Source of the DNA: Escherichia coli
Lineage (GTDB): Bacteria > Pseudomonadota > Gammaproteobacteria > Enterobacterales > Enterobacteriaceae
DNA: 64,000 nt
Assembly: GCF_003334355.1 (NCBI RefSeq)
Contig: NZ_QOWP01000017.1
Direction: 5' to 3' (one strand)
This document shows, piece by piece, positions 1,512 through 31,548 of this stretch. The notes under the pieces are model-generated. The model ran no database searches, was not told where the DNA came from, and worked only from the letters and a program-made list of their open reading frames with translations. A program made the translations under genes and the position numbers. Within the stretch, counting starts at the first letter, position 1. Each line of letters begins with the position of its first letter.

Positions 1512-2412
1512 CCGAGCCTCCGGTCACGACGCGGTATTCGGTACAGAAAGACGCCTGCGTACTGTTGAGCACGATGTCGGCCAGTGGTGCGGCCAGCTCG
1601 ACACGCTGCACGCCTTCCACATGCAAAGCGGCATAAATGGCAGACAGACGGATGTCGCGCCCAAGCCGGTGCTGTGCCGTGATGTACGCTTCCAGTTTTT
1701 TCACGGCGGCAGCGCGTATGGGTTCGCTTTCGGGACCAGGGTAAAGGTAAAGCGTGGCGTTTATCTGGTATTCAACGATGGCGGCAGACTGCACGGTCAC
1801 GCGGTCGGCCACCGGCCTGACGTCCTCGCCATTAAGGGCGTTACGCACCACGGCCAGCAGGTCTTCGGATGCGACGCCGTTATTTTCACGGGACAGCACA
1901 GAGATGGTGACGCAGGCAGGAGACGGACTGGTGACAGAGATATCCGCGACACGCCCGTCGGCACTGCGACCATGATACTGATAAGCACCCACCGACCCGG
2001 CAACGCTTAAACCTTCAAACGCCTGCTGAATACGCAGACGATAATCAGTATCAGATTCCATCACTGCCGGTGTCGGCGGGATGGTCGAATCATCTGCCGG
2101 GGTGATAGTCAGGCGCGTGGTGTTGTAATTGGCACCAATCACATCAAGGTCATTACCGGCGGCACAGGCCAGCATTACCGCCCGTGCGGCCTCATTCACA
2201 CGCTGACGCCAGATAAGCTCACGATAAGCATTTTCCTCCAGCAGTTTGACGAGAGGCTCGGATTCCAGCGTCAGGGTACGGGCAACCGCCTCCTGCTGGT
2301 CTTCCGGGTAAAGGGAAATCAGTGTCGCCTTGCGTTCAGCGAGAATGGTTTCAAAGTCCAGCTCCTCGACCACATCCGGTGCAGGTAGCTGGTTCAGGTC
2401 GATAATCGGCAT
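1504..2412 (-). CDS. J: P2-like baseplate assembly protein gpJ
   Basis: ORF track 302 aa; recognised as P2 gpJ family; synteny W-J-I. Confidence 0.9.
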   Translation of the reverse strand: MPIIDLNQLPAPDVVEELDFETILAERKATLISLYPEDQQEAVARTLTLESEPLVKLLEENAYRELIWRQRVNEAARAVMLACAAGNDLDVIGANYNTTRLTITPADDSTIPPTPAVMESDTDYRLRIQQAFEGLSVAGSVGAYQYHGRSADGRVADISVTSPSPACVTISVLSRENNGVASEDLLAVVRNALNGEDVRPVADRVTVQSAAIVEYQINATLYLYPGPESEPIRAAAVKKLEAYITAQHRLGRDIRLSAIYAALHVEGVQRVELAAPLADIVLNSTQASFCTEYRVVTGGSDE

Positions 2413-2416
2413 GGTT

Positions 2417-2764
2417 TCAACTCACAGGGATGGTTAACGAAAGTGGCTGGCCGGTGTCGTTGTGCTGACCGGTTAACGTGACCGTCATTCGCCCGTCAAA
2501 ACTGCGCTCAGTGGTGACGGATGACAGGGTGACGCGGGGTTCCCATTTCAGCACAGACATGTAACAGGCGACCTTAATCTGCAACTCAAGCGCCGGGGTC
2601 TGCGGCTGGTCAATCATTGACGCCAACAACGAGCCGTAATCACGACGCATCACCCGTGAGCCGACCGGTGTGCGCAGGATATCGCCGATACTCTGGCTGA
2701 TATGCTCAAGGTCAGTGACAGTCAGGCCATCACTGCAATTCATTCCGAGATAACGCGCTGTCAT
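2417..2764 (-). CDS. W: P2-like baseplate protein gpW
   Basis: ORF track 115 aa; size and position match P2 gpW. Confidence 0.85.
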   Translation of the reverse strand: MTARYLGMNCSDGLTVTDLEHISQSIGDILRTPVGSRVMRRDYGSLLASMIDQPQTPALELQIKVACYMSVLKWEPRVTLSSVTTERSFDGRMTVTLTGQHNDTGQPLSLTIPVS

Positions 2765-3396
2765 AAAGGACTCCCGGTTGTGCCGCCGCTGTCGCCGGGG
2801 TGTTTATGGGTATGCAGTACCTTACCGTTTGATGAGAGTTCACCGCCGGTGTGTTCAATGTTGCCGCGCATCGTCCCGCCCTTCTGCACTTCCAGCGTGC
2901 CGGTAGTCAGTTTGTTAGTGCAGACCACCTCCGGTGTGTCCAGTGTGATGCGGGTTGACGCTTTCACCATGACCACCGGCACCGTGGCAGTAACAGAATC
3001 AGAAGCCGTCACGCTGGCCGTTTTAATTCCGCTTGCCGTGAGTGCACTGGTTTCGGGTTCATACTCAATCACCGCCCCGTCAGGGAAACGGATATGCAGG
3101 GCATCCGCCGACGCAGACGGCGCGGGGTTATCGCCGGAATAAATCCCCGGCAGAACGAACGCCGTGTCGAGTTCGCCACCCACGGCCAGAATCAGCACCT
3201 GTTCCCCCACGGAAGGTGCCCACCATGTGCGCGAACGCCCGGCGCGATGGGTCAGCCACTGAAGCCAGTCGGTGCACATGCCGCCGGTCTGCACACGGCA
3301 GCGACCGGCATTAAGGTCGGTTTCGACGATAATGCCGGTGCGGATCATGTTGCGCAGTGCGCGCGCGAGTTCCTGAATATTTGCGAGAGTGTTCAT
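2761..3396 (-). CDS. V: P2-like baseplate spike protein gpV
   Basis: ORF track 211 aa; size and position match P2 gpV. Confidence 0.85.
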   Translation of the reverse strand: MNTLANIQELARALRNMIRTGIIVETDLNAGRCRVQTGGMCTDWLQWLTHRAGRSRTWWAPSVGEQVLILAVGGELDTAFVLPGIYSGDNPAPSASADALHIRFPDGAVIEYEPETSALTASGIKTASVTASDSVTATVPVVMVKASTRITLDTPEVVCTNKLTTGTLEVQKGGTMRGNIEHTGGELSSNGKVLHTHKHPGDSGGTTGSPL

Positions 3397-3462
3397 AACG
3401 GGAAGAATGCCGCCGGGTCATACCGGCGGCAATGTGACGATGAGGTGTCGGGAATGGCACAA

Positions 3463-3915
3463 CTAACGGTCGAGGTGCGCCAGAATAATCTCTTCAATCA
3501 TCTGCACATCCTCACCGGTAAAGCCGAGCAGGGGACGCGCCGGATAATCAATTTTCTTACCGTCTTTTCGGTTTTCTTCCGACAGACCGAACTGATGCAC
3601 GCTCGCAATTCTCGGTGACTTTCCGCCGTAAAATTCCATTGATGCCTGTTCCGGGCTGGCGCGGATATGCAAAAAACGACTGGTGATAAGTTTCGCAAAC
3701 ATTTTTCGCTTAACGCGACCGGTCTTTTTTCTGGCGCTCTGCTGCTGACGTGGCGCGTAGGGTGTGCCGTCCGGGGCTTTCTGTGCCATCACCCGACGCT
3801 GCTGACTCTGCCGCAGACGTTTCGCCAGTTCGGCACTCAGTCGCCGACGCCCTGACGGTGACAGCGATTCAATCAGTCCGGCCAGCCGGTCTTCAAAACG
3901 CTTAAACTCATTCAT
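3463..3915 (-). CDS. S: P2-like tail completion protein gpS
   Basis: ORF track 150 aa; position between R and V. Confidence 0.85.
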   Translation of the reverse strand: MNEFKRFEDRLAGLIESLSPSGRRRLSAELAKRLRQSQQRRVMAQKAPDGTPYAPRQQQSARKKTGRVKRKMFAKLITSRFLHIRASPEQASMEFYGGKSPRIASVHQFGLSEENRKDGKKIDYPARPLLGFTGEDVQMIEEIILAHLDR

Positions 3916-6321: not shown

Positions 6322-6830
6322 CAGATTTGACTCACGATGCAGCGCGGCTTGTCCTGGATACGCGCCACCGCCCAGCGCATATCCCGCCACAGTTCATCAA
6401 TGGTGCTGTCAATGCTGTCGGCCTTCTTGTCGCCTTTCGCACTGGCATCCACGCCGCGATAACGCTCATAAAGCGACGCGGTCGCCATCGCGCACACGGC
6501 GCGCTCGTAGTAAAAAACCTTGATGCTTTCACCGTCGATGTCGTCCGCCGGAACGTCCGCCAGACGCGTAAAACCGGCAGCAATTTTCTGTTCGCGGTAC
6601 TCGTACAGCTCCGCATTCGTCTCCGCCATGCCTGACTTGATGGCCTCACGCAGACGGGCGGGGGCGACGGTCTGCTCAAGGCGCATACGTTCCCGGACGC
6701 GCTTCGGGTCGATATCGGGAAAAAAGAACGTGTTTTTAATCACCGGCTCGTCGCCTGCCGGTTGCGGGATGACCACCGTACCCTCACCGGACACGGGAGC
6801 CTCCTTTCGCGGAATAATCAGCGTCATCAT
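6321..6830 (-). CDS. L: Head completion protein gpL
   Basis: Internal Met of track ORF gives 169-aa MMTLIIPRKEAPVSGEG..., the size of P2 gpL. Confidence 0.85.
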   Translation of the reverse strand: MMTLIIPRKEAPVSGEGTVVIPQPAGDEPVIKNTFFFPDIDPKRVRERMRLEQTVAPARLREAIKSGMAETNAELYEYREQKIAAGFTRLADVPADDIDGESIKVFYYERAVCAMATASLYERYRGVDASAKGDKKADSIDSTIDELWRDMRWAVARIQDKPRCIVSQI

Positions 6831-9663: not shown

Positions 9664-9836
9664 TGTCAGGAGTCCTGAATAGTGATTAGAGGAGTCACAT
9701 GTCGGCATCAGTTTCCCGACGATGCGCATCCTCCGCCATCAGTCCCGGATGGCTTATCACTGACACAACAGCACCTTAGCGAATCGCGGGGCGCGACTCA
9801 GTAGCCTTGCCGTGTATTCATCACGGCGAGGTATTC
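9664..9836. promoter_or_regulatory. Divergent late promoter region between O and P (Ogr-dependent in P2)
   Basis: Position between divergently transcribed late operons; from P2 biology, motif not pinpointed. Confidence 0.45.
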
Positions 9837-11609
9837 ATGACCATCACCACAGACACCACTCTTTTACACGACCCGCGTCGTCAGGCGGCGCTGCTGTACT
9901 GGCAGGGGTTTTCCGTGCCGCAGATTGCCGCCATGTTGCAGATGAAACGCCCGACGGTGCAGAGCTGGAAACAGCGCGACGGCTGGGACAGCGTTGCCCC
10001 CATCAGCCGTGTCGAAATGAGTCTGGAAGCGCGGCTGACCCAGCTCATCATCAAACCGCAGAAAACCGGCGGTGACTTCAAGGAAATTGACCTGCTGGGA
10101 CGCCAGATTGAACGGCTGGCGCGGGTCAACCGCTACAGTCAGACCGGCAACGAGGCAGACCTTAATCCGAACGTCGCTAACCGCAACAAAGGCGGGCGTC
10201 GCAAACCGAAAAAGAATTTTTTCAGTGACGAGGCCATCGAAAAGCTGGAGCAGATTTTCTTTGAGCAGTCTTTCGACTATCAGTTGCACTGGTATCGCGC
10301 CGGGCTTGAGCACCGCATCCGCGATATCCTGAAATCCCGCCAGATTGGCGCGACGTTTTATTTTTCCCGCGAGGCGCTGCTGCGCGCCCTGAAAACCGGT
10401 CATAACCAGATTTTTCTGTCGGCCAGTAAAACGCAGGCGTATGTGTTCCGCGAATACATCATCGCCTTTGCCCGGCTGGTTGACGTTGACCTGACCGGTG
10501 ACCCGATTGTCCTGGGCAATAACAGCGCAAAACTGATTTTTCTCGGCACCAACTCCAACACCGCGCAGAGCCATAACGGCGACCTGTACGTCGACGAGAT
10601 TTTCTGGATCCCGAATTTTCAGGTACTGCGTAAGGTGGCATCAGGTATGGCCTCACAGAGTCACCTGCGTTCGACCTATTTCTCCACCCCGTCCACGCTG
10701 GCGCACGACGCCTACCCGTTCTGGTCGGGTGAACTGTTTAACCGGGGACGCGCCAGCGCCGCCGAACGCGTGGAAATCGACGTCAGTCATAACGCCCTTG
10801 CCGGTGGACTTCTCTGTGCGGACGGCCAGTGGCGGCAGATTGTCACCATTGAGGACGCCCTGAAAGGCGGCTGCACGCTGTTCGACATTGAGCAGCTCAA
10901 ACGCGAAAACAGCGCCGACGATTTTAAAAACCTGTTCATGTGTGAATTTGTTGACGACAAGGCGTCGGTGTTCCCGTTCGAGGAGCTGCAACGCTGCATG
11001 GTCGACACGCTGGAAGAATGGGAAGACTATGCGCCGTTTGCCGCGAATCCGTTCGGCTCCCGCCCGGTATGGATTGGTTACGACCCGTCACACCGTGGCG
11101 ACAGCGCCGGATGCGTGGTACTGGCACCGCCGGTGGTAGCCGGTGGCAAATTCAGAATACTTGAGCGTCACCAGTGGAAAGGCATGGACTTTGCCACTCA
11201 GGCTGAATCCATCCGCAAACTCACCGAGAAATACAACGTCGAATACATCGGTATTGATGCCACCGGCCTCGGTGTCGGCGTGTTCCAGCTCGTGCGCTCG
11301 TTCTATCCCGCCGCACGCGACATCCGCTACACGCCGGAAATGAAAACCGCAATGGTGCTCAAGGCAAAAGACGTTATCCGCCGTGGCTGTCTGGAATATG
11401 ACGTCAGCGCCACCGACATCACCAGCTCGTTTATGGCTATCCGCAAGACCATGACCAGCAGCGGACGCAGCGCCACCTATGAGGCCAGCCGCAGCGAGGA
11501 AGCCAGCCACGCCGACCTCGCCTGGGCGACCATGCACGCCCTGTTAAATGAGCCACTCACCGCCGGTATCAGCACCCCGCTGACATCCACCATTCTGGAG
11601 TTTTACTGA
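9837..11609 (+). CDS. P: Terminase large (ATPase) subunit gpP
   Basis: Internal Met gives 590-aa MTITTDTTLLHDPRRQAALLYWQGF..., the size of P2 gpP. Confidence 0.9.
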   Translation: MTITTDTTLLHDPRRQAALLYWQGFSVPQIAAMLQMKRPTVQSWKQRDGWDSVAPISRVEMSLEARLTQLIIKPQKTGGDFKEIDLLGRQIERLARVNRYSQTGNEADLNPNVANRNKGGRRKPKKNFFSDEAIEKLEQIFFEQSFDYQLHWYRAGLEHRIRDILKSRQIGATFYFSREALLRALKTGHNQIFLSASKTQAYVFREYIIAFARLVDVDLTGDPIVLGNNSAKLIFLGTNSNTAQSHNGDLYVDEIFWIPNFQVLRKVASGMASQSHLRSTYFSTPSTLAHDAYPFWSGELFNRGRASAAERVEIDVSHNALAGGLLCADGQWRQIVTIEDALKGGCTLFDIEQLKRENSADDFKNLFMCEFVDDKASVFPFEELQRCMVDTLEEWEDYAPFAANPFGSRPVWIGYDPSHRGDSAGCVVLAPPVVAGGKFRILERHQWKGMDFATQAESIRKLTEKYNVEYIGIDATGLGVGVFQLVRSFYPAARDIRYTPEMKTAMVLKAKDVIRRGCLEYDVSATDITSSFMAIRKTMTSSGRSATYEASRSEEASHADLAWATMHALLNEPLTAGISTPLTSTILEFY

Positions 11610-12643
11610 TGAGCAAGAAAAAAGGGAAAACACCGCAACCTGCGGCAAAAAAAATGACCGCCAGCGCCCCGAAAATGGAGGCATTCACCTTTGGTGAGCC
11701 GGTGCCGGTACTCGACCGCCGTGACATTCTGGATTACGTCGAGTGCATCAGTAACGGCAGATGGTATGAGCCACCGGTCAGCTTTACCGGTCTGGCAAAA
11801 AGTCTGCGTGCTGCCGTGCATCACAGCTCACCGATTTACGTCAAACGTAATATTCTGGCCTCGACATTTATCCCGCATCCGTGGCTTTCCCAGCAGGATT
11901 TCAGCCGCTTTGTGCTGGATTTTCTGGTGTTCGGTAATGCGTTTCTGGAAAAGCGTTACAGCACCACCGGTAAGGTCATCAGACTGGAAACCTCACCGGC
12001 CAAATATACCCGTCGTGGCGTGGAGGAGGATGTTTACTGGTGGGTGCCGTCCTTCAACGAGCCGACAGCCTTCGCGCCCGGCTCCGTGTTTCATCTGCTG
12101 GAGCCTGATATTAATCAGGAGCTGTACGGCCTGCCGGAATATCTCAGCGCCCTTAACTCTGCCTGGCTGAATGAGTCGGCCACGCTGTTCCGCCGCAAGT
12201 ATTACGAAAACGGCGCACATGCCGGATACATCATGTACGTCACCGATGCCGTGCAGGACCGCAACGATATCGAAATGCTTCGCGAAAACATGGTGAAGTC
12301 GAAAGGCCGCAACAACTTTAAAAACCTGTTTCTCTATGCCCCGCAGGGGAAAGCCGACGGCATTAAAATTATCCCGCTCAGTGAAGTGGCGACGAAGGAC
12401 GATTTTTTTAATATCAAAAAAGCCAGCGCCGCTGACCTGCTGGACGCGCACCGCATCCCTTTTCAGTTGATGGGCGGCAAGCCGGAGAACGTCGGATCGC
12501 TGGGCGATATTGAGAAAGTGGCAAAGGTCTTTGTCCGCAATGAGCTTATCCCGCTACAGGACAGAATTCGGGAAATAAACGGCTGGCTCGGCCAGGAGGT
12601 CATCCGCTTTAAAAACTACTCACTGGAGACTGACAACGGCTGA
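11609..12643 (+). CDS. Q: Portal protein gpQ
   Basis: ORF track 344 aa MSKKKGKTPQPAAKKM...; recognised as P2 gpQ family. Confidence 0.9.
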   Translation: MSKKKGKTPQPAAKKMTASAPKMEAFTFGEPVPVLDRRDILDYVECISNGRWYEPPVSFTGLAKSLRAAVHHSSPIYVKRNILASTFIPHPWLSQQDFSRFVLDFLVFGNAFLEKRYSTTGKVIRLETSPAKYTRRGVEEDVYWWVPSFNEPTAFAPGSVFHLLEPDINQELYGLPEYLSALNSAWLNESATLFRRKYYENGAHAGYIMYVTDAVQDRNDIEMLRENMVKSKGRNNFKNLFLYAPQGKADGIKIIPLSEVATKDDFFNIKKASAADLLDAHRIPFQLMGGKPENVGSLGDIEKVAKVFVRNELIPLQDRIREINGWLGQEVIRFKNYSLETDNG

Positions 12644-12648
12644 ACATC

Positions 12649-12670
12649 GCCGCCTGCGGGCGGCTTTTTT
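12649..12670 (+). terminator. Intrinsic terminator after Q
   Basis: gccgcc-tgcg-ggcggc hairpin followed by T6 at 12665..12670, 5 nt after Q stop. Confidence 0.7.
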
Positions 12671-12812
12671 ACACCCCGCCATCACGCCCTCACACGCTCA
12701 TCACCGCACAAAAAATCCCGCAGACACACCAACGCCTCAACTGGCAGACTAAACGCCATCACGACGCGCTCAGACGCTGAAAAAATAAAATCAGCACCAC
12801 CGCCAGCGCGCA

Positions 12813-12831
12813 GTGCTTTCCCCGCCTCGCC
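12813..12831. other. cos: P2 cos site (19-nt cohesive end, joined in prophage)
   Basis: gtgctttccccgcctcgcc is the reverse complement of the P2 cohesive end GGCGAGGCGGGGAAAGCAC (from memory); lies between Q and A as expected. Confidence 0.85.
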
Positions 12832-13116
12832 CGCCCGCTTCATGGGGCGGTTTTAATGCAGTTGCATAGATACTATGGATCCGCACCAGTCCTGACCGCA
12901 CGCAGCCTGAACGGACATCCCCAACGCATGCAAAAACATTCACTTGTTGCATGCATAGCTTTTTAAGTACGCCATACCGCAACTGTACATTTTTAAGCAA
13001 TTGGCAACCTTAAAAAATTTACATTGCTTTCAAGACCTTATCATCCGTAGTCTCTGTTTTTTACTTTGAGCTACATCAATAAAATCTCAAACATGTTTAA
13101 TGCAAAGCCCTTGTTA

Positions 13117-13169
13117 CACAACATAGAATGTATGTCTAGAAACAACGACATACTATATGTTGTGTTTTT
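13117..13169 (+). terminator. Interrupted 15-bp stem-loop plus T5 (terminator-like or operator)
   Basis: cacaacata/tatgttgtg outer stem and tatgtc/gacata inner stem, 10-nt loop, then ttttt. Confidence 0.3.
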
Positions 13170-13231
13170 CCGGCTCTCTGTTCGGTGATATGCCAAATCA
13201 CTTTGCGTTTAAACAGAGCATTATTTCAGGG

Positions 13232-13246
13232 CAAGACTTCGCTCAA
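13232..13246. repeat. Direct repeat copy 1 (caagacttcgctcaa)
   Basis: Exact 15-mer also at 13496..13510. Confidence 0.9.
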
Positions 13247-13309
13247 AAGTCATTCCACCTAAGAAGCGCATATACCGGTGGAAGTTGCCCTCTACTTACA
13301 GGAGGCAAT

Positions 13310-13423
13310 ATGAAGAAATGCTATTACTGCATTCTCGTTCTGGCCCTCTTTGGCTATCCAAACGGTAGTCCGAGTGGTTTGTCAGTAAACGTCAGTAATA
13401 TCAATGTCAGCATTATGCTTTAA
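13310..13423 (+). CDS. Hypothetical small hydrophobic peptide (37 aa) in the P2 old/tin hotspot
   Basis: aggagg at 13300..13305, 4-nt spacer, ATG; MKKCYYCILVLALFGYPNGSPSGLSVNVSNINVSIML; terminator directly downstream. No homolog recognised. Confidence 0.4.
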   Translation: MKKCYYCILVLALFGYPNGSPSGLSVNVSNINVSIML

Positions 13424-13440
13424 TATGCTTCAAACAAAAA

Positions 13441-13465
13441 AACCACCTGCCAGGGTGGTTTTTTT
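13441..13465. terminator. Bidirectional intrinsic terminator
   Basis: accacc/ggtggt stem with A-run upstream (13434..13442) and T7 downstream (13459..13465). Confidence 0.65.
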
Positions 13466-13495
13466 GCGCCCATCATCAATACGATGAAAGACTGA

Positions 13496-13510
13496 CAAGA
13501 CTTCGCTCAA
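13496..13510. repeat. Direct repeat copy 2 (caagacttcgctcaa)
   Basis: Exact 15-mer identical to 13232..13246. Confidence 0.9.
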
Positions 13511-13725
13511 GACGAATTATGCGTCGACATAAGGTTACCCGCAATGATTTTATTAGACTAAATGGATGGCCTTTTATGACCCGGATCAAACGGCTGTCCT
13601 TACCGACATGCTAGTCACTCAATAGCATTTAGCCTTCTAATTCAGCATGCTATTGACCTTCTGCTGCCCCATAACTGCTCCGCATAAGCCATTCAATGCC
13701 ATATCAAATCACGTTGTATTTTTAC

Positions 13726-16002
13726 TCAAATTGGTAACGAGAACCCCGGCCACTCATCAGCAACCGGATACGTGAATTTTTTCCCGTCATAATTTACGGT
13801 CGCGCCACGCGCCAGCGCCTCAAGCTCCCATCGTTGCGGCCTGATACCGTTCTGAGCGAGGTCAACGCGGATACGGGTAATTTGCAATCGTTCAGACCTG
13901 GTCAGTCTGGCAGATGGTGCAATTTCATGCGGTTTTAACGGGATTCCGTTTCTTTGCTGACGATTTGGTGTTCTCAGTCCGTGTTTTAATGCGCCCCTGA
14001 GCGCCATCACGACCTCCGGGTCACTCCATTCGATAACACCGTCATCTACCAGATTAAGCACTGCTGCGGCGTGCTCAGAAGGTGTGGGAGCCGGTAACGA
14101 AGTATCACCACCGGTGAGCTTTCCACAGTTATTGACAGGACTCCGAGGCGCGGCGATGCCGCTTTTTAAAGTCAAAGGCTCAACGACCGGAACTTTCGGC
14201 ACAATGCGCCAGTCCGTCGTTCTGGTGATATGAATATGACGCGCGCCGAGATGCGGCGCGTAAATGCCGACCACTCTCTCGACTTCTTCCTCGTACTCGT
14301 TAACGTCATCCGACGGGCTACGGGCAACCCTGACAGTCTGACAATCGCGCGGGACATTTGCCCCACCCTGCGCGCTGATATACAACGCAAAATCACCACT
14401 GTCTGCAGCAGCGCGAGCAGCCTCGACGCGTTCGTCAAACTCATTAGCAATACTGACGCCGCGAGGCAATTTGCGTAGTTCACGGTAAGCCCCCATTGTC
14501 GGCAGGCCAACCGTTTTAAATTGCGGGATGCGCCACGTTGACGCCCATGCGGTAACAGCCGCCGCTGTGTCTTTCAGCGGTCTGCCGGTATCGTTATCGA
14601 GCTGACCATCCAGTGCATAGCCGTCGATGTTTTTTGAAATGTATTTCGCGATATATCCCGCAGCACCGCCCCGGTTAAGGTATTTTGCCTGAAAACGGTT
14701 TCGCGCGGCTCCTCTTTCGTCGCCATCCTCTTTGAGCGCATAGCGACGCATGATTTCGATAATCTGGTTGCGCTGGCGTGGATTACAAAAAAGCATCATA
14801 TGCCAGTGCGGCGTTCCGTCGTGGTGTGGCTCGACGACACGCAAACCGTAGGCCTGTAAATCATTATCCTTGAATGCCGTGCGCATCAGGCTCCAGATAC
14901 GGCAGAGATAACGCTGCGCATCCTTTGGATTAAATGCCTCATCGTTCCAGCCGTGATTAAGCTGAACGGTTTTACTTTCGCCTTTTCCGACCTGACGTGT
15001 CGGGTGATACTTTGACGGCGCGGTCAGCGTGATAAACATCCCCACATCACCCTCTGCGGCGGCGTAACGCTCAATACCGGCAATGGTGTTCATCAGCTCC
15101 ATCCGGCGAATTTCAGGATTAGAAATACTGCCCATCACCTTACTGATAAGGTCGATGCGCTCGCCGGTTTCCCTGTTTTCAAGGTCACACGATTTAAGAA
15201 ATTCCAGATTTGCCTGGCGGCGCGCACGCACATCACGAATGGCATGTTTACTGGCATAAGGAGAACGGTCTTTATTGACCTCCCCGACAGCAATCAGTAA
15301 CGCCTCATGCCAGCGCATACGCTGGCCTTTAAGCTGATGAGTCCACCACTCATCGTTAAACAGGCGGGCAATGGCAGAATATGCCTGCCTCGTGGTCATC
15401 TGTCCTTTACGGTATTTTTTCCAGTAGAGCGGGGAAATATTGAAAGCACGTGCAGCGCCAGCAACATGACCATAGAGGTGAGCCTGCGCCTCATCCGTAA
15501 ACAGCGATTCTTTTTCGCCATGTGCATCAACCCAGGCATCGCAGAGTTCCTCATACATCATGAAAAGCTGCGATGAGATACGGGCAGCAAACTTTTTCAG
15601 CTCCTTGTCATTCATTCCTGGCAGGCGCGCATAGTGGTCACGCTCTGCCAGAAACAGCAACGACGCGTCGGTGTTCATTTCATGGCGCTGATTCACACGC
15701 TCAATGCGCGGCCATAAACGACGCTGAAAAGTGGATGTGAGGAAATAAAACCCGTGCACCGGGCTTTTATTGCGCCGGATGTAGTCATAGCGTGAAGTAA
15801 ACAGCGAGCGCAAAAAGTAAGGCAGGCGGTTAATCGTGGATAAAACACCTTGCACCTGACGCATCTCGTCACGTGTAAGGGGTCTTTCGCGCCCGACAGC
15901 CTCGCGTGGCGCGTTCCATGCATAAGCACCGGTAAACGCCTTACCGGTGCCTGCGGCAAATGCTGACGGAGGGACAAAACGCCCGGAGGCTTTAACGGCC
16001 AT
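13726..16002 (-). CDS. A: Replication initiation protein gpA (rolling-circle nickase)
   Basis: ORF track 772 aa (track start is TTG at 16044); ATG at 16002 gives MAVKASGRFVPPSAF..., matching P2 gpA as recalled; start uncertain. Confidence 0.9.
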   Translation of the reverse strand: MAVKASGRFVPPSAFAAGTGKAFTGAYAWNAPREAVGRERPLTRDEMRQVQGVLSTINRLPYFLRSLFTSRYDYIRRNKSPVHGFYFLTSTFQRRLWPRIERVNQRHEMNTDASLLFLAERDHYARLPGMNDKELKKFAARISSQLFMMYEELCDAWVDAHGEKESLFTDEAQAHLYGHVAGAARAFNISPLYWKKYRKGQMTTRQAYSAIARLFNDEWWTHQLKGQRMRWHEALLIAVGEVNKDRSPYASKHAIRDVRARRQANLEFLKSCDLENRETGERIDLISKVMGSISNPEIRRMELMNTIAGIERYAAAEGDVGMFITLTAPSKYHPTRQVGKGESKTVQLNHGWNDEAFNPKDAQRYLCRIWSLMRTAFKDNDLQAYGLRVVEPHHDGTPHWHMMLFCNPRQRNQIIEIMRRYALKEDGDERGAARNRFQAKYLNRGGAAGYIAKYISKNIDGYALDGQLDNDTGRPLKDTAAAVTAWASTWRIPQFKTVGLPTMGAYRELRKLPRGVSIANEFDERVEAARAAADSGDFALYISAQGGANVPRDCQTVRVARSPSDDVNEYEEEVERVVGIYAPHLGARHIHITRTTDWRIVPKVPVVEPLTLKSGIAAPRSPVNNCGKLTGGDTSLPAPTPSEHAAAVLNLVDDGVIEWSDPEVVMALRGALKHGLRTPNRQQRNGIPLKPHEIAPSARLTRSERLQITRIRVDLAQNGIRPQRWELEALARGATVNYDGKKFTYPVADEWPGFSLPI

Positions 16003-16267
16003 ATGAGCCAAAAGCCTCTGAACAACGCCTGCTGAGTTGCTCAACCTGCGCGTTTAAATCAGCAAAAGACTTTGCGCTTCCGGTCAGAATATCGTGATGC
16101 ATCAGGCCGGAAACGAGCTGGCTTAATTTCGGATAATAACCAACCACCGCCAGCCATTCCTGACCGGCGTTTTTACCGCTTTCCGCTCTCTTTTTCTCGT
16201 GGAGAATAAACTGAAAGCTGTCACTGGTAACGACATAACGTTCGCCAATTTCAATACGAATACTCAT
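15992..16267 (-). CDS. P2 early-operon small protein (orf83-like)
   Basis: ORF track 91 aa; position just upstream of A. Confidence 0.6.
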   Translation of the reverse strand: MSIRIEIGERYVVTSDSFQFILHEKKRAESGKNAGQEWLAVVGYYPKLSQLVSGLMHHDILTGSAKSFADLNAQVEQLSRRCSEAFGSYGR

Positions 16268-28269: not shown

Positions 28270-31282
<3,013 letters not shown>

Positions 31283-31289
31283 ACACTGC

Positions 31290-31520
31290 CGGATGCGGCG
31301 CGAGCGCCTTATCCGGCCTACGGGTCGGCAACAGTTGTAGGCCTGATAAGACGCGACAGCGTCGCATCAGGCATTGATTGCCGGATGCGGCACAAGTGCC
31401 TTATCCGGCCTACAGGTCGGCAATAGTTGTAGGCCTGATAAGACGCGACAGCGTCGCATCAGGCATTGATTGCCGGATGCGGCGCGAGCGCCTTATCCGG
31501 CCTACGGGTCGTGCATCCGA
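31290..31520. repeat. BIME/REP cluster with ~98-bp unit repeated about 2.5 times
   Basis: gccggatgcggcgcgagcgccttatccggcctacgggtcggcaacagttgtaggcctgataagacgcgacagcgtcgcatcaggcattgatt repeated with few substitutions. Confidence 0.85.
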
Positions 31521-31548
31521 CAACACCGAATTTACAGGAACACAGAAC

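Follow-up and report, generated by a model that had tools for sequence, protein, structure and literature searches.

A short direct repeat in a P2-like prophage of Escherichia coli as the probable recognition element of a two-RNA toxin-antitoxin cassette

A stretch of 64,000 nucleotides from an Escherichia coli genome (contig NZ_QOWP01000017.1, assembly GCF_003334355.1; hereafter the window) holds a P2-like prophage in which one 15-bp sequence, CAAGACTTCGCTCAA, occurs twice on the plus strand, exactly at 13232-13246 and again at 13496-13510, with 264 bp from start to start. The two copies bracket a Shine-Dalgarno (SD) sequence, a 37-codon open reading frame (ORF) and a terminator. This arrangement had been pointed out in a first-pass annotation of the sequence and was confirmed here, and the locus raises the question of what the repeat pair is. 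The annotation had offered two kinds of answer, a target-site duplication or recombination scar marking the ORF as an inserted mini-cassette, or a pair of protein or RNA binding sites. Comparison with related loci suggests that the repeat pair is the recognition element of a compact type I toxin-antitoxin cassette made of two RNAs, and we give this reading a probability of roughly 0.75. One copy would be the target site in the leader of a messenger RNA (mRNA), and the other, read from the opposite strand, would be the 5' end of an antisense small RNA (sRNA).

No further copy of the 15-mer was detected in the 64 kb, even when two mismatches were allowed, and shuffled sequence gave a mean of 0.10 matches. 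The whole window had only three direct repeats with a length of 14 nt or more and a spacing within 400 bp, the other two being a host tandem resembling repetitive extragenic palindromes (REP) and an imperfect pair within a gene. At the RNA level the match between the copies covers 17 positions (13230-13246), that is, the exact 15-mer together with one G·U and one G-C pair on its 5' side.

The two copies of the repeat were found to change in concert. Four repeat alleles were identified among the relatives of the locus, and each change was present in both copies. Allele GGCAAGACTTCGCTCA was carried by the window type and the Klebsiella plasmid type, GGTAAGGCTTTGCTCA by the cassette copies L008, L009, L029, L035, L040 and L043, GTGACAAGACTTCGCTCA by L034 and L050, and TGGTAAGGCATTACTCGAA by L044. 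In the covariation test, copy 1 and the reverse complement of copy 2 were treated as a hairpin, and pairs were counted over 15 distinct sequence types. Standard pairs accounted for 95.7% of the cells of this intermolecular helix, and both sides had changed in 7 of its 17 pairs (22 cells). None of 500 shuffles reached the covariation score of the helix, and slid registers paired at 29-45%.

The few differences between the copies were informative about the strands involved. All one-sided interior differences were transitions that give G·U pairs when copy 1 belongs to the mRNA and a minus-strand RNA is templated by copy 2; after a swap of the strand roles, the same differences became A·C mismatches. 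They amounted to seven cells and about five independent events, namely those in the window and L020b (GGC versus GAC), in L001 and L014, in L007, in L020a, L024 and L031, and in L051. The copies of L020a, L024 and L031 differed by a single G·U-compatible base, and the intermediates L007 and L020a carried exactly the changes dividing the first allele from the second. Because of this G·U asymmetry, and because the complementarity ends at the predicted start of the minus-strand transcript, RNA pairing is favoured over a generic identity of two DNA sequences, and on these comparisons the RNA-pairing reading of the repeat appears well supported. The earlier suggestion of paired binding sites was therefore upheld in its RNA form, as the copies co-change and their differences keep G·U. 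A retron-type arrangement had been set aside in the first-pass annotation, which was reasonable.

The minus strand downstream of the ORF carries the features predicted for an sRNA gene. Across all types GCATAATT was invariant, the TTG of the -35 hexamer was likewise invariant and GTTGCG was kept in all but two, while the spacer of 17-18 nt drifted freely. The -10 was followed by 5-6 variable bases and then by the complement of the repeat, which began 7-8 nt downstream of the -10, so that the complementarity ended exactly at the predicted transcript start. Constant hexamers around a drifting spacer are the signature expected of a promoter, and we therefore read the region as a minus-strand promoter. 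A generic scan for promoter consensus sequences did not call it, because its -35 matches just 3 of 6 positions (TTG). The same scan proposed a promoter-like sequence on the plus strand overlapping copy 2 (CTGACA-17-AATTAT), which was judged incidental: its -35 was unconserved in relatives (CTAGCA, CTGGCA, CGGGTA), whereas the minus-strand hexamers were conserved. The conserved blocks 5' of the sRNA promoter (13545-13590) are possibly an UP element or regulator sites.

The predicted sRNA measures 70-76 nt across types, the window form having about 74 nt (13509 to 13436). A three-part fold was obtained for nine types with a correctly placed start; the sequence of the middle hairpin differed in each, and the 5' seed was weakly structured or open. 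The terminator is common to both predicted transcripts and was near-invariant in the aligned relatives, with a shortened variant in the decayed copy L048. The two hairpins that it would form in the two transcripts are complementary to each other (loops UGCCAG versus CUGGCA).

On the plus strand, the ORF is a real coding sequence as judged from its pattern of change. Its length was 37-40 amino acids in all relatives, indels were whole codons, and variable sites were distributed over the three codon positions as 19, 13 and 32. Among codons differing by a single base, the ratio of synonymous to non-synonymous differences was 743:514 in frame, and 209:999 and 172:1067 in the other frames. The window peptide starts with basic residues, continues with a hydrophobic stretch of some 13 residues and ends in a polar tail where hydrophobic residues appear in alternation. 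A word-based search of a collection of 5.8 billion proteins returned 2 clusters only, both unnamed.

Upstream of the ORF, the motif TA[AG]AATG (13124-13130) was invariant, and in most types a hairpin of variable sequence started 7-10 nt past it. An invariant motif followed by such a hairpin is what is expected of a -10 with a protective 5' stem-loop, and the motif was read in this way. The conserved region before it (13016-13123) may hold UP-like or regulatory sites plus a weak -35 (TGCAAA, 13101-13106). The predicted mRNA folded more stably than shuffled sequences (z = -3.7). In the stem-loop at 13176-13218 both sides had changed in 6 of 12 pairs, with 95-100% of the cells paired, and this covariation indicates that selection acts on the structure of the plus-strand RNA.

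Copy 1 also takes part in a helix within the leader. Its 5' part (13229-13234) pairs with 13285-13290, just before the SD. When the leader of each type was scanned for the best partner of 9 nt spanning the 5' end of copy 1, this partner lay 25-28 nt 5' of the AUG in all types and in the same register. The pairs formed were GGGCAA/UUGCCC in the window and GGUGGC/GCCGCC, GGUGGU/GCCACC or ACCACC, and GGUGACA/UGUCACC elsewhere. Both sides had changed in 4 of the 8 pairs of this helix, and its score was reached by 0 of 500 shuffles. When copy 1 was blocked in silico, the pre-SD strand became paired with the SD in the minimum-energy fold of most plasmid types. In a fold of a longer window transcript the copy-1 helix was formed and the SD was free. 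Modelled in this way, the pairing of copy 1 beside the SD suggests a translational switch. Two more candidate long-range helices with compensatory changes were noted, 13204-13208/13266-13270 (pseudoknot-type, three compensatory pairs) and 13253-13256/13301-13304 (anti-SD:SD).

These features can be combined into a mechanism. The plus strand would give an mRNA of about 330 nt, with a long structured leader, that encodes the 37-residue peptide. The minus strand would give an sRNA of about 74 nt from its own promoter, which would be transcribed toward the mRNA gene and would end at the common terminator. As the sRNA would be transcribed from the other strand at copy 2, its first 16-17 nt would be the exact complement of copy 1 in the leader, 64-80 nt 5' of the AUG. 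Three strands would compete, the 5' half of copy 1, the pre-SD strand and the SD. Binding of the sRNA to copy 1 would free the pre-SD strand and close the SD region, turning translation off, and the sRNA would lock this closed form. Cleavage of the 16-17-bp duplex by RNase III may come next, and the complementary terminator loops may give the first contact, as in the par system of Enterococcus faecalis. If the sRNA has a shorter life than the mRNA, a cell that loses the plasmid or prophage, or whose transcription is shut off by an infecting phage, would go on to synthesise the peptide and suffer membrane damage. By analogy with known systems, peptide synthesis after loss or infection would stabilise the element or abort the infection, and the 37-residue peptide is probably toxic. 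Toxicity, switch mechanism and biological role are what we infer from these comparisons. The coordinates of all features are collected in Table 1.

Table 1. Features of the cassette in the window, in order of position
Feature	Position	Strand	Observation
Whole cassette, ~575 bp	13016..13590		Conserved across P2-like prophage, IncF-type plasmid and chromosomal/metagenome copies; between cos and gene A
Conserved upstream region	13016..13123	+	Blocks ATTTACAT, TTTTTACTTTG, ATCAATAAA and AAACATGTTTRATGCAAA kept in all types while flanks differ
Predicted mRNA -10 hexamer TAGAAT (TAAAAT in relatives)	13124..13129	+	Within invariant TA[AG]AATG; inferred
Predicted peptide (toxin) mRNA, ~330 nt	13136..13465	+	Start inferred from -10, end from intrinsic terminator
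Predicted mRNA 5'-terminal hairpin	13138..13169	+	In most folded types, sequence different in each; absent or displaced in L034 and L040
Stem-loop in 5' untranslated region (5'UTR): outer stem 13176-13181/13213-13218, inner stem 13185-13188/13198-13201	13176..13218	+	RNAalifold
Repeat copy 1, predicted sRNA target site in mRNA leader	13230..13246 (exact 15-mer 13232-13246)	+	64-80 nt 5' of AUG
Candidate switch strand (UUGCCCUCU)	13285..13293	+	Pairs with 5' part of copy 1 or with SD region
SD AGGAGG	13300..13305	+	GGAGG/GGAGA ~4-8 nt 5' of ATG in all members
37-codon ORF, MKKCYYCILVLALFGYPNGSPSGLSVNVSNINVSIML	13310..13423 (ATG 13310)	+	Coding signature, conserved length
Bidirectional intrinsic terminator A7-CCACC-UGCCAG-GGUGG-U7	13436..13465		Perfect 13-nt inverted repeat, A/T runs on both sides
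Predicted antisense sRNA (antitoxin), ~74 nt	13436..13509	-	5' seed of 16-17 nt, variable middle hairpin, terminator
Repeat copy 2, predicted sRNA 5' seed 5'-UUGAGCGAAGUCUUGUC-3' (minus strand)	13494..13510	-	Complementarity from predicted transcription start
Predicted sRNA promoter: -35 TTGCGG (13544-13539), 17-nt spacer, -10 CATAAT (13521-13516)	13516..13544	-	Conserved hexamers
Conserved region 5' of sRNA promoter (AATAAAA, GTCATAAAA, TTGAT)	13545..13590	-	Conserved blocks in all types

The boundaries of the cassette were determined by alignment of all types. Agreement started at ATTTACAT (about 13016) and ended past ATCAA (about 13590), with divergence outside. About 215 bp of conserved sequence lie outside copy 1 and about 80 bp outside copy 2, and the repeats are therefore internal to the unit and not its borders. 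Every intact copy contained a predicted promoter, a structured 5'UTR with copy 1, an SD, an ORF of 37-40 codons, the bidirectional terminator, copy 2 and the predicted minus-strand promoter.

The P2-like prophage of the window includes a terminase gene (9807-11609), the portal gene Q (11609-12643), cos (about 12813-12831) and gene A (13726-16044, minus strand). The sequence GTGCTTTCCCCGCCTCGCC at 12813-12831, which we take to be the reverse complement of the P2 cohesive end, sits between the portal gene Q and the cassette, and this places the finding in the cos-proximal gpA-gpQ hotspot. The gpA-gpQ region is a known hotspot of accessory anti-phage genes in P2-like phages (PMC9122126). P2 itself has old and tin in this region, and no ordinary-sized protein gene is present there in the prophage of the window.

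Among 5426 complete E. coli genomes, 158 carried the stretch 13000-13730. Its location was chromosomal in every case and next to the gene of the replication endonuclease, and there were two main alleles, at least 99% and about 87% identical. The copy of E. coli W (NC_017664, 2327573-2328303) is 99.6% identical and that of Ecol_224 (NZ_CP018948) 100% identical, and ST131 strains are among those with the 87% allele. The stretch was also detected in three deposited peduovirus genome records. A shorter core with about 73-78% identity was present in about 400 plasmids of Klebsiella and Enterobacter, mostly conjugative, with no annotation beneath the core, and the core was found in genomes of Citrobacter and Kluyvera as well. 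Plasmids matching just the 36-bp terminator led to a much more diverged cassette in 16 plasmids of Salmonella, Leclercia and Citrobacter. When metagenomes were scanned with the terminator only, 30 contigs were retrieved; the small homologous ORF was present in all 30, and the repeat pair lay at the same offsets in all that were not cut by a contig end. A profile search with the peptide family yielded extra members, chromosomal and other, with the layout unchanged.

Several observations were made on the surroundings of individual copies. In at least eight complete E. coli assemblies (e.g., NZ_CP185789, NZ_CM130730, NZ_CP159209 and NZ_LR883965) the cassette occupied precisely 2273-3003 (or 2273-2996), minus strand. 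Given this identical position, these chromosomes must have been rotated so that position 1 falls at the start of the gene for the P2 gpA replication endonuclease. This looks like an artefact of a tool choosing a 'replication' gene as the start point. In the two phages with the 87% allele (L001 644-1129, L002 594-1079), an ORF of 161 amino acids with an HExxH motif (VAHELGHHVLGH) adjoins the cassette in the hotspot and by eye resembles ImmA/IrrE metallopeptidases. On Salmonella and Citrobacter plasmids (L008 and L009) the cassette adjoins genes of Rpn-family recombination-promoting nucleases, and L009 also has an Abi-family gene. One metagenome contig (L020, Ga0268256_1001162) carries two diverged cassettes, at about 3404-3750 and 6324-6670, some 2.9 kb apart. 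A single G·U-compatible position distinguishes the repeat alleles of the two, so that cross-talk between these co-resident cassettes is conceivable.

Type I toxin-antitoxin systems comprise a gene for a small (<60 amino acids) hydrophobic peptide with its own SD, and the ORF at 13310-13423 has the sequence properties of such a gene. They also comprise an adjacent sRNA gene complementary to the toxin mRNA, and a gene of this kind is predicted at the sequence level on the minus strand. In the trans-encoded type I systems of enterobacteria (tisB/istR-1, zorO/orzO, shoB/ohsC, dinQ/agrB and ralR/ralA), a small separate sRNA gene supplies about 16-21 nt that are complementary to the 5'UTR well ahead of the start codon. 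Such complementarity appears in the DNA as a direct repeat read from opposite strands. The complementarity of RalA is 16 nt (PMC4041452). However, the sRNA genes of these systems are located upstream and divergent or elsewhere, whereas that of the cassette is convergent and shares the terminator. The toxins of these systems have no sequence relationship to the cassette peptide, and the Rfam models of their antitoxins gave no match in the part of the window searched (12400-14000).

The layout matches that of par (Fst / RNA I - RNA II) of E. faecalis plasmid pAD1, which has convergent promoters, a shared bidirectional terminator and oppositely transcribed direct repeats (PMC7472228). The par system differs in having two repeat pairs (DRa and DRb) where the cassette has one. 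The repeats of par cover the translation initiation region of the toxin, whereas copy 1 of the cassette ends 64 nt 5' of the AUG and 54 nt 5' of the SD. The par toxin belongs to the Fst/Ldr superfamily, whereas the cassette peptide had no match in Pfam (11 family members, E <= 0.1) and by eye has no charged C-terminal tail. The hosts of par and its Gram-positive relatives are Firmicutes, and those of the cassette are Enterobacteriaceae.

In peptide build, target position and style of control the cassette resembles timPR (TimP / RyfA mRNA and TimR sRNA), a system found in enterobacteria including Salmonella and E. coli. The peptides of both are similar in build, that of timPR being about 38-41 amino acids long, with a basic N-terminus, an N-terminal half that is hydrophobic and a tail that is polar. 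TimR pairs through its 5' end with about 18 nt of the timP leader. The SD is trapped in this leader, and translation is controlled by its alternative conformations and not by the sRNA covering the ribosome binding site itself (PMC7667032, PMC11228461, PMC13000454). The target of the sRNA lies 63-82 nt from the AUG in timP of K-12 and 64-80 nt in the cassette. In timPR, a leader pseudoknot or long-range contacts open the sequestered SD. Candidates for contacts of this kind in the cassette leader are the covarying helix between copy 1 and the pre-SD strand and the pseudoknot-type helix 13204-13208/13266-13270, the latter selected on the same alignment and dependent mostly on one deep split. The motif C-x-C-I occupies residues 5-8 in TimP (MKIRCFCIVLIV...) and in the plasmid-type relatives, and in the window peptide it is shifted one residue further along. 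Distant members of the cassette family begin with MKIR and end in K, like TimP. Among these, P0088 (L043) and P0090 (L044-L047) have an MKIR start and K-rich tails, yet show the convergent layout and the repeat pair. L044, with the fourth repeat allele, is chromosomal and located between genes for a glutathione peroxidase and an acetyltransferase. P0088 and P0090 could link the cassette family to TimP.

Membership in the TimP family was nevertheless not supported. The TimR gene lies upstream of and divergent from timP, whereas the sRNA gene of the cassette is downstream and convergent, with a shared terminator; timPR occupies a fixed chromosomal site between sseA and sseB, whereas the cassette is found on mobile elements. 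With the NCBIfam model NF040796 toxic_TimP (cut-off 45 bits), E. coli TimP scored 86.8 bits and the distant member P0088 15.1 bits, and the window peptide and seven relatives gave no hit at E <= 10. An hhalign comparison of the cassette peptide family with the TimP family gave 7% probability over 11 residues. The Rfam model RyfA (RF00126) had no hit at E <= 1 on either strand of 12400-14000. Membership thus failed on the toxic_TimP model, hhalign, RyfA and gene arrangement, and the weak match of P0088 was kept as a lead only. Since these tests failed and the differences from par remain, we class the cassette, from its sequence and layout, as one that is likely to work like par and timPR but is a member of neither family.

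Several points weigh against a toxin-antitoxin cassette built around the repeat. The whole case is one of sequence comparison. Covariation alone would in principle fit equally well with other forces keeping two DNA copies identical, such as a single DNA-binding protein or gene conversion, and the evidence specific to RNA is confined to the G·U asymmetry (about five events) and the coincidence with the predicted transcription start. Neither promoter of the cassette was called by the generic scan, and in place of a clean sigma-70 promoter the mRNA has only TA[AG]AAT with a weak -35. When folded alone, the leader of the window type had its SD closed with or without the sRNA, which makes the switch less clear than in the plasmid types. 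Both additional long-range helices were chosen on the same alignment, which reflects largely one deep split of the family, and could be due to chance. The peptide lacks the charged tail that is typical of many type I toxins, and in addition to the search of Pfam, comparison with NCBIfam, PHROGs and PADLOC gave no toxin family or usable model.

The reading that survives best beside a type I toxin-antitoxin system keeps the sRNA and changes the role of the peptide, which would be a small membrane protein of benign or accessory function (modulation of membrane proteins or superinfection exclusion) and no part of an addiction or suicide module. It agrees with a peptide that matches no known toxin family, with a C-terminal half that is polar and uncharged, unlike many type I toxins, and with copies that are chromosomal and outside obvious mobile elements (L044). 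However, the cassette is compact and self-contained and has spread on conjugative plasmids and in an accessory, phage-defence hotspot of prophages, and control by several layers of RNA together with a sequestered SD is typical of genes that are to be kept off. TimP, of similar build, is toxic (PMC7667032). In addition, the sole copy without the sRNA half also has a weakened SD. This copy (L048 850-1400, contig NODE_32, adjoining a phage integrase gene) has kept copy 1, the ORF and a slightly shortened terminator; unrelated sequence replaces copy 2 and the sRNA promoter, and the SD reads CAGGAC, not GGAGG. Such decay, in a single case, would fit a toxin gene that is tolerated only when disabled. 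A non-toxic role is considered unlikely.

It is considerably less probable that the two copies are DNA operators, bound by one host or phage protein that would regulate the promoters on either side, perhaps through a loop. Two identical sites with a spacing of about 264 bp and a promoter beside one are a common arrangement of operators, and concerted change is also expected when both sites must fit one protein. However, the cassette encodes no such protein and moves among P2-like phages, IncF-type plasmids and the chromosomes of several genera, and a shared host protein would keep the sequence constant and not permit four alleles. One-sided differences that preserve G·U are meaningless for DNA recognition; moreover, the end of the repeat coincides with the predicted sRNA start, and copy 1 is also part of a covarying RNA helix.

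A target-site duplication or recombination scar from insertion of an ORF-terminator mini-cassette, which a perfect short direct repeat around a small unit in the hypervariable gpA-gpQ hotspot (PMC9122126) might suggest, is scarcely credible and was rejected on the cassette boundaries and the absence of single-copy sites, as homology in all contexts runs past both repeats, the pair lies at the same internal offsets in unrelated insertion contexts, changes in its sequence follow the cassette, not the flanks, and neither P2 nor Wphi, both without the cassette, has an empty site (no copy of the 13-nt core in their A-to-cos region at up to two mismatches). What stands of the earlier proposal of an inserted add-on is that the cassette is mobile in the hotspot; the repeat is no mark of how it arrived.

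With a type I toxin-antitoxin cassette as the preferred reading, the family is apparently new to description. Full-text searches by peptide and repeat sequences gave only an unrelated primer match, and the P2-hotspot papers searched made no mention of such a cassette. No model for it was found in Rfam, NCBIfam, PHROGs, PADLOC or Pfam. An Rfam search of 12400-14000 at E <= 1 gave weak, terminator-driven matches to RNAI and the Phe leader and no known sRNA or antitoxin family. We advance only tentatively the fuller proposal of an unrecognised enterobacterial type I family with the layout of par, maybe a rearranged distant relative of TimP, that is carried as unannotated cargo and acts as an abortive-infection or addiction module.

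If the toxin-antitoxin assignment is true, the cassette would be an addition to the short list of enterobacterial type I systems and among the few Gram-negative ones with a convergent layout and shared terminator. Beside timPR, it would also be the second natural case in which an sRNA acts about 70 nt 5' of the start codon by way of a leader switch. Nearly all records leave the cassette unannotated. It is present in about 3% of complete E. coli genomes, within the P2 defence hotspot, and in about 400 Klebsiella and Enterobacter plasmids. Plasmid persistence or phage exclusion may then owe something to a cassette unseen by protein-based surveys of defence and addiction. On the fuller and more tentative proposal, the cassette, having no annotated protein, would be invisible cargo in the gpA-gpQ hotspot and on hundreds of Klebsiella resistance or virulence plasmids, and hotspots that such surveys score as empty or unexplained would be armed.

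A REP-like tandem extends over 31269-31544 of the window. It consists of three tandem units of 92 nt with REP-like palindromes (GCCGGATGCGGCG...CTTATCCGGCCTAC) and is presumably a host element of the bacterial interspersed mosaic element (BIME) type, located outside the prophage.

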